Virus record (IMG/VR): IMGVR_UViG_3300013800_000006
Coordinates: 1 to 64,000 of that record
Strand: one strand, 5' to 3'
DNA: 64,000 nt
Source of the DNA: a virus
Taxonomy: Duplodnaviria; Caudoviricetes
The stretch's first letter is position 1, and the number at the start of each line of letters is the position of its first letter. Below, one piece after another: positions 34,238 through 38,924 of the stretch. The position numbers were made by a program, and so were the translations under genes. The notes beneath the pieces were generated by a model. That model worked only from the letters and a program-made list of their open reading frames with translations. It was not told where the DNA came from and did not search any database.

Positions 34238-37200
34238 CTAACGAATAGGGCACATACCACCGGCACACTCAGCCGATTCAACATCAAAATCATCTAAAAC
34301 TTTTTCCATATCAATAGGTTGAAGTGTGTTTGCATACGCTTCAAATACTTCTTGAGTTACAACTTCTTGCGGTAAATAAGGATACCCCAAATCTTCCGCA
34401 GTTTTAGTAGGGTCATTTCGTAACATAAATGTTGCCGAAACATAACAATCCCAGTTTTTGTGTATCCAATCTACAATTGAACCAATCTCTCCAGGGCTGT
34501 ATGACACAGTGCTTGAAACATTATGATCTATATAATGTTCCATGACCATTTTGTATCGTTCCAATTGTGCAACTGCCGATTCCAAATTAAGAAACCGACT
34601 ACCAACTTCTGAAAATTCCACATTCGCAAACTGAACAGGGAATGTAACCAAGATACCGGTAGCATCATACGGATTAATGAAAGTCCGATAACCAGCATCT
34701 TGCAACAGTTTAACCACCGGGTCATGAATAGAATAATTAATATTATTCAAAATATAACGACCCAGTGGCTTATGTATACCTTCTGTACAATCCGCCAACT
34801 TAGACAAAGTACCAGAAGGTTTTGTAGTTGTTACCGCAGCCGGGTGTTCCATATCCAATCCATCGGCCATACTATTGGCACCATTCCTAGCACATTGATG
34901 TAAAACATCAAATGCAGCAGGCTCATTGGCAAACTCCCATTGTACAATCCCTGTCAAACCTACTCCACATAAATGTAAATACTCATTCAATTCATGCCAT
35001 GTTCTTTGTAAAAGACCATCATCCAAATTGACACAAGACTGACGATAATTTGCACGCGCAATAAGGTATACTGCCCGTTTTAATCCTTCCATATTTCCAT
35101 TAAATCTCGGTAACACAACCTCACACAAATTGCACTGATAAGTCAGCATATTATTAAATACTGCTTTATGCTGAATAGGCTCTTCAAAACAATAAGAAGT
35201 ATATTCACCTTCCAATGGATAAATACGTTTAATGTTTTGATATTTTCCTTTACCAATAGGTGCATGACCCAACTTGGTATTCAATCGTTGGCAAGGTAAT
35301 TCCGATACATCAGTAATAGAAACGTACCAAGATGCTTTAGTACGCTTAAAATTAGATGATTGTCCAACATCCGCCATCAAACATACCGAAGATCGTATGC
35401 CATTTTTAGATAACAGTAATTGCAGCTTACGGATAAAAACTTCATCCGATTGGTAAATACGAATCCCACCAGATTCCGTATTAGAACCGTCACTATCAGC
35501 TAAACCGGCTATAAATGCCAGGCAAGAAGTACGGTCCCATAAAAACACTTCATCAATTGTGGGTAATTTTGTATCTTTTAGCACTACTTTTCGTTGGGGA
35601 ACATCAGGGTTTTGTCTGTATTGACCTTGATATTGAACTCCCCGTAAAGACAGTCCAACTTTTCGTCCATACAATAAGATCACCACATCATCCTTTTCTT
35701 CATAACCGTCACCATAACCAAACCCTAACTCATAAGCCAATTCGACATAAACTCCAGAGTCATTCACCATTTTAAAAGGTTCTGAATGAACCGCATACTT
35801 ACCAGGATGCTCCATAACAGTCTTAGCCATTACTTCATGATAATGGTCACTAAATCGTGTTGTAACAGATAATCGATGGTAAGGAGTGCAATCTAAATAA
35901 CTACCATCAGATAATTCTATTCTCAACATTTGCTGATGGTAGCCTGTAATTTGTGGAACAACAACGGCCCACTGCTGCCCATTCCAAACTTCTACTTCCT
36001 CACCAACAACATCCGAAATCTTAACCAATGCTTCACGAGTAATAAGCCATGTATCACCATGTACACAGAAACCTTTATCACCCAACAAGATTTCACCACA
36101 ATTTCCAGACACAACCGAACCTAATAAAAATGATTGCGTAGTCGGTACACCAGCACAAAACACTGGTTCTATACGATCAGTCAGTTCAACCCGAACAACT
36201 CGTAACACTTCCATTTTGTTATACGGTTGTCTTTTCAATAACTGTGGTTCAAGATACTGCAACAATTTATTGGGGTTGGATATAGTAAATCGATACACAT
36301 CTTTAGTAGGATATGCTTTATACCCACCCTTACCATCCGGCATTTCCTTTTCTCCTGCTGGATGGGTCAAACTGATTTTCCCACGAACACCAATAAGCCT
36401 GCATAACTGAGCAAACTCATTCAAAAATGTCCGATGAATAGATGTAAACTGAATGAGATAACCACGTTCAGCATCTCCACTAAAATGACCATCAGATTCA
36501 AGATAGCCACGAATAAATGCTAAAATGGTTGGCAAAGTACCACCTAATACGTAATCAGGCACTTTGGACTTATCGGGAACAGCATGACCTAAAATTCTAC
36601 CAACTACCAGATTTTCTGACCGTTGGGAAAACTTTAAACCAACTCTTGTAAGTTCTTCAATACATTCCCGTTTCTTAGTATTCAAATTAATTCCAATTTT
36701 GGAATTCTCTTTTGAATTATACCAAGTACCATCTGCAATCAACCATGCATCCAGATAAGCATTATCTGGATCATGAACACTACCAAAACACCCTTCAATG
36801 AAAGATGGAGCTAATTGATCATCAAGTTGCAATTCACCAACTGTAATAAACGATCCATCAATCTTTACAAATCGATGGTACTTAGTTGCATACTCAACCA
36901 TACCATTACTAAACTCCACTTCATATAATGCCTCAGCATCTCCAGTTTTTTCAAACTTGGCTAAAACAACATCACCAGAACCATCTATCACGTCTGCCCA
37001 TGTACCACTCAATGAGCCGATTCGTACAAGACCTTTATCTGGAATACACACCAATGAATCTTTCGCTAAACATGGGTTCATACCATAGAAGTATGGCGCT
37101 CTACGCAATGCAGCATCACCGTTCACAATTCCGGGTTCACTGCCCCCACCATCTAACATCAAATCGAACACTTCAAATAATTGACTTTTTGAAGGTTTAT

Positions 37201-37867
37201 CATAAAACACCAAAGAATTATTAGATTGACCTCGTTGTGGGTTTAATTGTTGATGATCACGTTTAGCTAATGCAAATTCCCGCCAGTACTTATTAGAATT
37301 AGGCATTAGTGCCAATTCAGCAGATCGACGAGATGATAAAATAGTCCCCATCCAATTGACAATATCTAAAATGTCCAATTCAGATAACAAACGACCTGCT
37401 GCTCTGTTCATGATAGTGCAAATCCCTTGCAAAGCAATATATAATTGATGATCTCCGCTACTAATCCAACCATAACCTCGTAATCGCTCACCGGCTGGAC
37501 GTATTTGAGATAAATCAATAATTAGCTTTTCAGCAGGATGCTTACCCGAAATAAGCTTACCCACTGCTTTCGCCCAAGCTTCAGCACTATCGCCTACTTG
37601 CAAAATCCAAGTTTTACTCGCTGACAACCATGTTTCCGTATTACGTTCTGCACCACCTTTCTGTGTTCTAGTAGAACGTATAATTTCTATATGAGGGATA
37701 TGTCGCATAAAGCCATTCAATATCCCTATAATAGGTCGAAATCCAACTCCACAGTTATGAACAACGACTTTAGATTCACCAACAGTATAAGTATGAGTCT
37801 TTTCTACAGACAAATCATATAAAGACTCAGAACTTTGTGGTAAACGCTCAACACTTTTTACTTTCAC
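34238..37867 (-). CDS. nrdJ: Class II (B12-dependent) ribonucleotide reductase, C-terminal gene: IntC + extein + two cis inteins
   Basis: After removing inteins: CGVGF...RRSAELAL...GSEPG...GMNP|CGEILLGDKGF|CNLCEV...KPSGTLS...ECAGGMCPIR; GTG start with GAGGA upstream. Confidence 0.93.
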   Translation of the reverse strand: MKVKSVERLPQSSESLYDLSVEKTHTYTVGESKVVVHNCGVGFRPIIGILNGFMRHIPHIEIIRSTRTQKGGAERNTETWLSASKTWILQVGDSAEAWAKAVGKLISGKHPAEKLIIDLSQIRPAGERLRGYGWISSGDHQLYIALQGICTIMNRAAGRLLSELDILDIVNWMGTILSSRRSAELALMPNSNKYWREFALAKRDHQQLNPQRGQSNNSLVFYDKPSKSQLFEVFDLMLDGGGSEPGIVNGDAALRRAPYFYGMNPCLAKDSLVCIPDKGLVRIGSLSGTWADVIDGSGDVVLAKFEKTGDAEALYEVEFSNGMVEYATKYHRFVKIDGSFITVGELQLDDQLAPSFIEGCFGSVHDPDNAYLDAWLIADGTWYNSKENSKIGINLNTKKRECIEELTRVGLKFSQRSENLVVGRILGHAVPDKSKVPDYVLGGTLPTILAFIRGYLESDGHFSGDAERGYLIQFTSIHRTFLNEFAQLCRLIGVRGKISLTHPAGEKEMPDGKGGYKAYPTKDVYRFTISNPNKLLQYLEPQLLKRQPYNKMEVLRVVRVELTDRIEPVFCAGVPTTQSFLLGSVVSGNCGEILLGDKGFCVHGDTWLITREALVKISDVVGEEVEVWNGQQWAVVVPQITGYHQQMLRIELSDGSYLDCTPYHRLSVTTRFSDHYHEVMAKTVMEHPGKYAVHSEPFKMVNDSGVYVELAYELGFGYGDGYEEKDDVVILLYGRKVGLSLRGVQYQGQYRQNPDVPQRKVVLKDTKLPTIDEVFLWDRTSCLAFIAGLADSDGSNTESGGIRIYQSDEVFIRKLQLLLSKNGIRSSVCLMADVGQSSNFKRTKASWYVSITDVSELPCQRLNTKLGHAPIGKGKYQNIKRIYPLEGEYTSYCFEEPIQHKAVFNNMLTYQCNLCEVVLPRFNGNMEGLKRAVYLIARANYRQSCVNLDDGLLQRTWHELNEYLHLCGVGLTGIVQWEFANEPAAFDVLHQCARNGANSMADGLDMEHPAAVTTTKPSGTLSKLADCTEGIHKPLGRYILNNINYSIHDPVVKLLQDAGYRTFINPYDATGILVTFPVQFANVEFSEVGSRFLNLESAVAQLERYKMVMEHYIDHNVSSTVSYSPGEIGSIVDWIHKNWDCYVSATFMLRNDPTKTAEDLGYPYLPQEVVTQEVFEAYANTLQPIDMEKVLDDFDVESAECAGGMCPIR
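35135..36067 (-). mobile_element. Intein with LAGLIDADG endonuclease, Gln-terminated (311 aa)
   Basis: Starts CVHGDTWLIT, block B CTPYHRL, motifs ELGFGYGDG and FIAGLADSDGS, ends NNMLTYQ before Cys+1. Confidence 0.88.
36101..37072 (-). mobile_element. Intein with LAGLIDADG endonuclease at the NP|C active-site position (324 aa)
   Basis: Starts CLAKDSLVCIP, block B ATKYHRF, motifs LDAWLIADG and FIRGYLESDGH, ends SVVSGN before Cys+1. Confidence 0.9.
37754..37867 (-). mobile_element. C-terminal half (IntC, 38 aa) of a naturally split intein
   Basis: MKVKSVERL...LYDLSVEKTHTYTVG...VVHN then Cys+1 of RNR. Confidence 0.88.
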
Positions 37868-38296
37868 GATAAATCCTCACAGCTAGTTCTCTAAAAGAAT
37901 CTTGGGTAATATCACATTCCCAAACTCGATAACCTAATGAGACTAAACGTTTTAATCGTCCATCATCTTCTCGCCACTTGGATTTGGCTAACCACCTTGT
38001 TACTGGATATTTATATGATTCTTCATAAAATTTTGGATTCATGTGCCAAAAATCACCAAAAATCTCAATAACAACATTTAACTCTTTAATAAAACCATCT
38101 ACTATAAAACTATGTAACATAGTTTTTTTACGTTTTTCTTTTGTTTCAGAACGTAAAGCAGATAACCTACATGCTTGTTTATGGACATCAGTTTTGGCTT
38201 CCGCATGGCATCTTTATGAGCTTGCGATTGAAAAGTAAGAAAAAATCGCAAGCTCATCAATAGCTTATGTTCCGCAGTGCGAACATAACTACCCAT
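37848..38296 (-). pseudogene. Degenerate free-standing homing endonuclease (NUMOD3-like repeats + Vsr/DUF559-like nuclease)
   Basis: Two frames: MGSYVRTAEHK...HKDAMRKPK and ...ETKEKRKKTML...VDGF...VIEIFGDFWHMNP...DDGR...LGYRVWECD; frame break at the A4 run 38192..38195. Confidence 0.75.
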
Positions 38297-38924
38297 CCAC
38301 TAATTCCTTATCATCCAAAAATTGTGCTTCACACCAACCTTCAGTGGTTAAAAACAAATGATCTTCAGTACAAATAATTGTTTCCCCGTTTTCCAGAGTA
38401 ATTTTAACTAAAGATTTTGGTGGATTAACTATAACAGCTTGTACCTCCGAATGAATAAAACTTTTAGTGAGTTCATCAAAAGATACAACTAAATCACCTG
38501 CTTCTAGTAACTCAATAGGCTTAAAAGAACCATCTGCCATCCCAACTAACGTGCCTTTTACAAAACATCCTTGTAGCAAGAGCCAGAGTGCATCCACAGC
38601 ATCAAATACTGTTTTAACCGATGTAAAGCTGCAATTAAAATTGCAGCTTTCTCGTGTTCGGGCTACTTCAGTACCCCCCAACCACAAAGAACGACCTGAA
38701 GGAAATGCAGCTCGATTTAAAATTAATTCTCGTAACTCAGCTAGTTCGGCTAGTTCTTCATTACTCAAATTCATCCCTTTAGCCCGTTCCCATAACCAAG
38801 CTTGGTGCCTGAGCACCCGTGCAACTGTTTGAGGCCATGTTTCAAACTCAGTCGCCATTTCATTTAAAGGACGACTGTAACTACGCCGATAAACCAATTG
38901 TGAGCGTGTAGACCATTCATTCAT
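38289..38924 (-). CDS. nrdJ: Class II ribonucleotide reductase, N-terminal gene: 119-aa extein + IntN
   Basis: VYRRSYSRP...ETWPQTVARV...PSGRSLWLGG...NFNCSF...WLLLQG| then intein N-block. Confidence 0.92.
   Translation of the reverse strand: MNEWSTRSQLVYRRSYSRPLNEMATEFETWPQTVARVLRHQAWLWERAKGMNLSNEELAELAELRELILNRAAFPSGRSLWLGGTEVARTRESCNFNCSFTSVKTVFDAVDALWLLLQGCFVKGTLVGMADGSFKPIELLEAGDLVVSFDELTKSFIHSEVQAVIVNPPKSLVKITLENGETIICTEDHLFLTTEGWCEAQFLDDKELVDG
38292..38567 (-). mobile_element. N-terminal half (IntN, 92 aa) of a naturally split intein
   Basis: CFVKGTLVGMADGSFKPIE...block B CTEDHLFLT...GW, then stop. Confidence 0.88.

Follow-up and report, generated by a model that had tools for sequence, protein, structure and literature searches.

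The locus described here is nrdJ, the gene of a class II ribonucleotide reductase (RNR), which in an uncultured phage is divided between two genes by the halves of an intein. It lies in the window, the whole stretch of DNA analysed, comprising 64 kb of the 75.9-kb IMG/VR phage record IMGVR_UViG_3300013800_000006; all genes of the region are on the minus strand. Gene 1 (38924..38289, 211 amino acids (aa)) joins 119 aa of class II RNR to a 92-aa N-terminal intein half (IntN) and ends at a TAG stop codon (38291-38289). Residues 1–119, the N-extein (38568..38924), match Pfam RNR_Alpha (4.8e-10), contain an FNC motif whose cysteine, C98, aligns with C119 of the Lactobacillus leichmannii enzyme RTPR, and end in LLQG. 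Residues 120–211, the IntN (38292..38567), begin CFVKGT with the catalytic Cys1, carry the block B motif TEDH (T67 and H70) and match the N-terminal half of the HINT and intein profiles (Pfam Hint 1.6e-9, Intein_splicing 4.6e-7). Gene 2 (37867..34238, 1209 aa) is in a different frame from gene 1 and opens with GTG at 37867, the first possible start after an in-frame stop, which aligns with the ATG of the related locus L002; a GAGGA ribosome-binding site (37878-37874) stands 6 nucleotides (nt) upstream. Its first 38 aa form the C-terminal intein half (IntC, 37754..37867), covering Intein_splicing profile positions 122–155; its block F reads LYDLSVEKTHTY, and VVVHN, its block G, closes the half. 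CGVGF and the remainder of the reductase come next. The roughly 420 nt between the two genes hold two short open reading frames (ORFs) in different frames (38296..38102 and 38120..37848).

A sequence-only reading of this DNA had called a fractured nrdJ with a naturally split intein and had placed both genes, their frames, the GTG, the GAGGA site and the 38-aa IntC; each of these coordinates holds, and the ORFs, the Pfam matches and recurrence of the arrangement confirm the call. An identical 211-aa gene 1 product with the same layout is present on 15 contigs, and the eight loci that were read, in eight assemblies, each come from a different sequencing run. The stop and the frames, whose reality that reading had left to be confirmed, are therefore genuine, and sequencing or assembly error is excluded as their source. 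When five copies are aligned, the intein halves show no differences and the spacer varies, with a T/G polymorphism that makes a stop and a 6-nt indel; such variation between invariant halves is what is expected of a decaying gene flanked by two constrained ones.

A family of inteins at LLQG/C

The window pair is not a one-off: split and contiguous inteins form a family at this site in many uncultured phages. Six distinct IntN/IntC pairs (from the window, L002, L012, L014, L015 and L016) interrupt NrdJ at the same point, LLQG/C, where the slash marks the splice point; the other five are 29–62% identical to the window pair. Across the six, IntN spans 91–105 aa and IntC 36–38 aa, and all six are broken in one common loop, the usual position of endonuclease domains. 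IntN and IntC were joined in a script and aligned to natural contiguous mini-inteins (nine aligned inteins in all). From end to end, the joined halves can be aligned with contiguous mini-inteins found at this site in P0363, which is of the same NrdJ type, and in P0247 and P0279, which belong to a second NrdJ subfamily with FYLLLNG/C. These contiguous versions came only from an exhaustive HMMER search; a search for them among the longer proteins of a word-indexed database returned only P0123, which is still split and has an extra upstream intein.

There is no variation at C1, at T67 and H70 of block B, at D110 and H117 of block F or at H129 and N130 of block G, and every member has Cys at +1. 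By sequence this set corresponds to the complete class 1 catalytic apparatus, and it includes the five catalytic intein residues (Cys1, the Thr and His of block B, the terminal Asn and the +1 Cys) that are expected of a fractured gene. Ratios of non-synonymous to synonymous divergence (dN/dS) between the window and L002 are 0.19 for IntN, 0.42 for IntC and 0.03–0.06 for the exteins, values that are rough because synonymous divergence (dS) is saturated (above 1); they point to purifying selection on both intein halves. The comparison of window 38292-38924 with L002:6001-6630 also reveals a mosaic of divergence, with 97% identity in the N-extein (dS 0.57), 62% in IntN (dS 1.66) and 89% in the C-extein (dS 1.41), which suggests a recombination boundary at the splice point.

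The endonuclease between the halves

In L002, whose gene 1 is 82% identical to that of the window, the spacer is an intact 266-aa ORF that overlaps the stop of gene 1 as well as the start of gene 2 and is labelled a homing endonuclease by PHROGs. It has two N-terminal NUMOD3-like repeats and a C-terminal core with the motifs VIEFFGDFWH...WRED...WESD, in which E192, D196, H199, D225 and E244 are conserved residues. An AlphaFold model of this protein gives block-mean predicted local distance difference test (pLDDT) scores of 77–94 in the nuclease domain, at least 83 in most blocks, on a shallow alignment of 5 rows, a depth set by a viral scan with the L002 endonuclease that gave one locus, a fractured helicase. 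Foldseek matches the model best to E. coli Vsr (1VSR, E 5.7e-4; 1CW0) and to the catalytic domain of I-Bth0305I (3R3P), and the conserved E, D, H and D on the modelled Vsr fold, together with the NUMOD repeats, assign the L002 orthologue to the EDxHD/Vsr-like type. Intact 266-aa endonucleases are also present in L014 and at the P0006 locus, and L015 has a 389-aa version.

The two spacer ORFs of the window are the N- and C-terminal ends of this endonuclease, and the sequence-only suggestion of a Vsr-like remnant between the intein halves is thus borne out by the L002 orthologue and its Vsr-like model. The N-terminal, NUMOD3-like part (38102..38296) keeps the first 35 or so codons and then undergoes a -1 frameshift where L002 has a run of 5 A and the window 4; about 115 codons are deleted from the middle; and the last 90 codons survive as a 90-aa ORF (37848..38120) encoding the Vsr-like nuclease core, with its motifs (VIEIFGDFWH, WRED and WECD) intact. 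Nested deletions reduce the spacer from the 420–426 nt left in the window clade to about 100 nt in L013, a near-identical phage that has lost a further 321 nt, and to 57 nt in L012, where the first and last endonuclease codons are joined in frame; the spacer of L016 is 77 nt. Yet the split state persists after endonuclease loss, and the gene 2 ribosome-binding site (37874..37878) is kept in every relative, including those with reduced spacers and those free of endonuclease. Among relatives, LLQG/C sites present a graded series, from contiguous mini-inteins through split inteins with an intact 266-aa endonuclease and the decayed copy of the window to scars of about 57–100 nt, with a group I intron in other phages.

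An RNA hairpin (38256..38296, minus strand; dG -14 kcal/mol, z -3.2) spans the point where gene 1 stops and the endonuclease remnant begins. Its counterpart at L013:8243-8293, where the endonuclease has been lost, forms a perfect stem of 15 bp (dG -21.8 kcal/mol, z -6.6) in which the differences from the window are compensatory, and there is none at the gene 1 stop of L002, which has the intact endonuclease. A hairpin is likewise kept at the endonuclease-free gp41-7 locus (Dassa et al. 2009, PMC2677866). A second structure, a perfect 14-bp hairpin with a 14-nt loop (38216-38257; dG -21.5 kcal/mol, z -4.5), lies inside the remnant. Its loop as assembled encodes FFLTFQ, which matches L002 LRGKPK at 0 of 6 positions; the flipped loop would encode LKSKKK and match at 3 of 6, which supports a putative micro-inversion or template switch at this hairpin.

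The insertion site and the rest of the reductase

The encoded enzyme is a monomeric class II RNR of the L. leichmannii RTPR type: both the RNR_Alpha and RNR-II insertion domains are found, and the cysteines that align with RTPR C119, C408 and C419 are retained, as is the C-terminal Cys pair. The roles of these residues in RTPR are well established. Beyond IntC, C-extein segment 1 (37073..37753; gene 2 aa 39–265, CGVGF to GMNP) encloses the RNR-II insertion domain and is followed by intein 2 (36101..37072), a contiguous LAGLIDADG intein of 324 aa at NP/CGE whose +1 Cys aligns with RTPR C408. An extein segment of only 11 aa, CGEILLGDKGF (36068..36100), separates it from intein 3 (35135..36067), also a contiguous LAGLIDADG intein (311 aa, ending in Gln), which is placed at KGF/CNL with a +1 Cys aligning with RTPR C419. 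C-extein segment 3 (34238..35134; gene 2 aa 912–1209 plus the stop codon) completes the protein, with the C-terminal Cys pair motif at its end. Fully spliced, the reductase would comprise about 655 aa, compared with 665–680 aa in intein-free homologues.

LLQG/C lies in the N-terminal fifth of the protein. Alignment with L. leichmannii RTPR (1L1L) places C119 at the FNC motif, approximately 21–22 residues before the splice point. We considered whether the +1 Cys could itself be catalytic C119 and rejected this, as C119 aligns with FNC 22 residues upstream and the +1 position of intein-free proteins is occupied by C, A, V, S or T. In intein-free NrdJ proteins the residue that follows LLQG is mostly Cys (165 proteins of the collected set), with Ala or Val in the closest intein-free relatives and Ser or Thr in others; the mapping of C119 and this variability together indicate that the +1 Cys has no catalytic role in the reductase. 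A degenerate DNA pattern for D.VD..WLLL[QNHK]G-C-hydrophobic, which matches every locus in hand, found one further IMG/VR contig and gave zero matches in 185,579 bacterial and archaeal species genomes, so far confining the element, as judged by this pattern, to phage metagenomes. A blastn search of the locus against cultured phage genomes gave zero matches, and the portal protein of the window phage is at most 26% identical to that of any cultured phage.

The same boundary is used by a different class of element. At L011:5352-6314 a group I intron with a LAGLIDADG_2 ORF, assigned on Rfam matches below the gathering threshold and on a 5' exon ending in U and an intron ending in G, lies exactly between the Gly and Cys codons (GGT/TGT) of LLQG/CGVGF. 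Many exon-1 products of 121–131 aa ending in LLQG plus K(P/Q/R)xH are found in other phages, which indicates that an intron at the LLQG/C boundary is common; intron and intein are shown to occupy exactly the same codon boundary.

Other insertions in these reductases also vary. P0124, an allele with 98% identity, lacks exactly intein 3, which hence represents a presence/absence polymorphism within one phage population. The NP/C site holds the Cys1-type LAGLIDADG intein in the window and a Ser1-type intein (SLRAGTLV...) in L013 (L013:9141-9629) and in P0126, and this difference between near-identical phages suggests that two unrelated inteins compete for the site. In L012:4592-6130 (P0123) the gene 1 that ends in IntN contains a fourth, contiguous intein at NFN/C, directly before the RTPR C119 equivalent. 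P0128 has a mini-intein at NFN/C, and insertions of 300–380 aa upstream of LLQG in several other NrdJ proteins are probably at this same site. P0279 connects the LLQG/C family with NrdJ-1: at its LLxG/C site lies a contiguous mini-intein that shares 43% identity with the window pair, and its C-terminus is an NrdJ-1-like IntN (E 5.8e-14). Outside NrdJ, a split intein fractures a DnaB-like helicase at GVGK/C (L017:783-3856); the Vsr-like endonuclease there is 423 aa long and has the VVIEFFGDFWHM core in common. Related split IntN halves are found as well at EK(I/L)HG/C, a motif that we take to resemble motif I of Rnl2-type ligases.

A fractured gene and its known counterparts

We consider it highly probable that this locus is a genuine fractured gene, in which a class II NrdJ is encoded in two genes, a class 1 mini-intein (92 + 38 aa) has been split by an endonuclease and the product is restored by trans-splicing. 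A free-standing NUMOD3/Vsr-like (EDxHD-type) endonuclease gene would have inserted into the endonuclease-insertion loop of the intein, so splitting it, and would then have decayed in the window phage through the deletion of about 115 codons, the -1 frameshift and polymorphic stops. The two halves would be translated separately, gene 2 from its own GAGGA–GTG start; IntN would then pair with IntC, and splicing in trans would link ...LLQG to CGVGF...; and the two downstream LAGLIDADG inteins would splice in cis to leave a mature reductase of about 655 aa. Restoration of the host protein by trans-splicing is suggested by the conserved residues and by purifying selection. Several points weigh against this account. 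The spliced product is a prediction from sequence, dS values above 1 leave dN/dS a rough measure, and IntC overlaps the 3' end of the endonuclease by some 7 codons, an overlap that could also constrain IntC. The gene also has three inteins, each of which would have to splice for the enzyme to be active. Nor is electrostatic steering evident: the sequence-only reading had proposed charge-driven association between a Lys-containing IntC start and an acidic IntN end, but, against a net charge of -11 for IntN, IntC has a net charge of 0, and the pattern is not kept across the family, so that the argument from charge complementarity is weak.

An unlikely alternative is that the two polypeptides assemble non-covalently through their intein halves and work without splicing. 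It has a precedent in Aeromonas phage Aeh1, whose NrdA is split by mobE and whose fragments are reported to assemble via interaction domains derived from a mobile element (PMC3045599). Both cases concern a phage reductase large-subunit gene split by a free-standing homing endonuclease, and ligation of the present halves is itself a prediction; however, that account describes interaction domains, whereas here there is a full set of splicing residues. Pairs with 29–62% identity all have the five splicing residues as well as the Asp and His of block F, which selection for association alone would not keep. Moreover, 130 additional residues would probably disrupt folding at the junction, which falls inside the conserved motif LLQG/CGVGF.

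That the reductase gene is a non-functional, decaying pseudogene riddled with mobile elements seems to us very unlikely. Three inteins and an endonuclease remnant in one gene, the latter clearly decaying, would fit such a history, but the extein dN/dS of 0.03–0.06, the retention of all catalytic cysteines and the reading frames intact in 15 contigs do not; nor does a split that outlasts the endonuclease with its ribosome-binding site retained. We assign a negligible probability to the further alternative that the true gene has one contiguous intein with an in-frame endonuclease domain and that its split is an artefact of sequencing or assembly. Only the general possibility of such errors in metagenomic contigs favours it; against it, the arrangement is identical in the eight independent assemblies, divergent relatives end IntN and begin IntC at the same positions, and the endonuclease belongs to a free-standing type and has a start of its own, which overlaps the gene 1 stop.

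Among the key tools of protein ligation are naturally split inteins, of which no more than a handful of orthogonal pairs are routinely used. To these the fractured NrdJ adds a candidate that is compact (92 + 38 aa) and whose native junction is small, with Gly at -1 and Cys-Gly-Val at +1 to +3. We rate as evenly balanced the proposition that it represents an uncatalogued split-intein family, distant from gp41-1, at a non-catalytic N-proximal NrdJ site (G / CGV), with relatives at every stage of fracture (contiguous mini-intein, endonuclease-invaded, decayed and endonuclease-free split) and a compact pair that may be orthogonal to NrdJ-1 and gp41-1. No mention of the LLQG/C site or of the intein motif strings was found in the literature searched, InBase being outside the comparison. 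The pair also differs from the solved split inteins in the PDB, in agreement with the suggestion in the sequence-only reading of a possibly new split intein. The nearest solved relative of IntN is gp41-1 (PDB codes 6QAZ and 6RIZ; E 7e-6), with a very similar block B region and a comparable size (128 aa for the fused chain in 6QAZ), although the similarity is confined to a stretch of 63 residues and gp41-1 has a helicase host and another junction. IntN is not significantly similar to NrdJ-1 (PDB code 8UBS, E 0.48), and IntC has no significant match in the PDB.

The endonuclease resembles I-Bth0305I and the EDxHD family (PMC3239194) in its N-terminal NUMOD-type repeats, its C-terminal Vsr fold and, in L002, the conserved E, D, H and D/E. 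It differs in having no significant sequence match to 3R3P and in its location, which is the gap between two intein halves and not a group I intron; the copy in the window, in addition, is frameshifted and without its middle third.

The closest parallels are the fractured phage genes of Dassa et al. 2009 (PMC2677866), above all the NrdJ-1 and NrdJ-2 loci, which bear out the statement in the sequence-only reading that split inteins around Vsr-like endonucleases are known. Shared with these are the same-strand order of host-N plus IntN, endonuclease, and IntC plus host-C; an intervening endonuclease of the GIY-YIG or Vsr-like kind, here Vsr-like with NUMOD3 motifs; the five catalytic residues; a phage nucleotide-metabolism host gene; and endonuclease-free derivatives with a retained hairpin, as with gp41-7. 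The 92-aa and 38-aa halves of the window also lie inside the published ranges of 88–105 aa for IntN and 33–54 aa for IntC (PMC2677866). There are differences: the endonuclease start overlaps the gene 1 stop here and follows a 27–51-nt spacer there, and in the window the endonuclease is a remnant. NrdJ-1 and NrdJ-2 both insert one residue C-terminal of the NP/C point (Dassa et al. 2009, PMC2677866), at the NPC thiyl-radical loop, a placement that bears out the earlier claim that NrdJ-1 sits elsewhere and makes LLQG/CGVGF, some 21–22 residues after the C119 equivalent, a different insertion point; in the window, NP/C holds the contiguous LAGLIDADG intein. The likely history matches steps I–III of the Dassa model (PMC2677866), namely a mini-intein, invasion of its loop by an endonuclease, and endonuclease decay or loss. 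As a natural record of endonuclease gain and loss, the close relatives make up an unusually complete series for that model of split-intein origin, and the locus is a new insertion site within the fractured-gene class, not a new principle.

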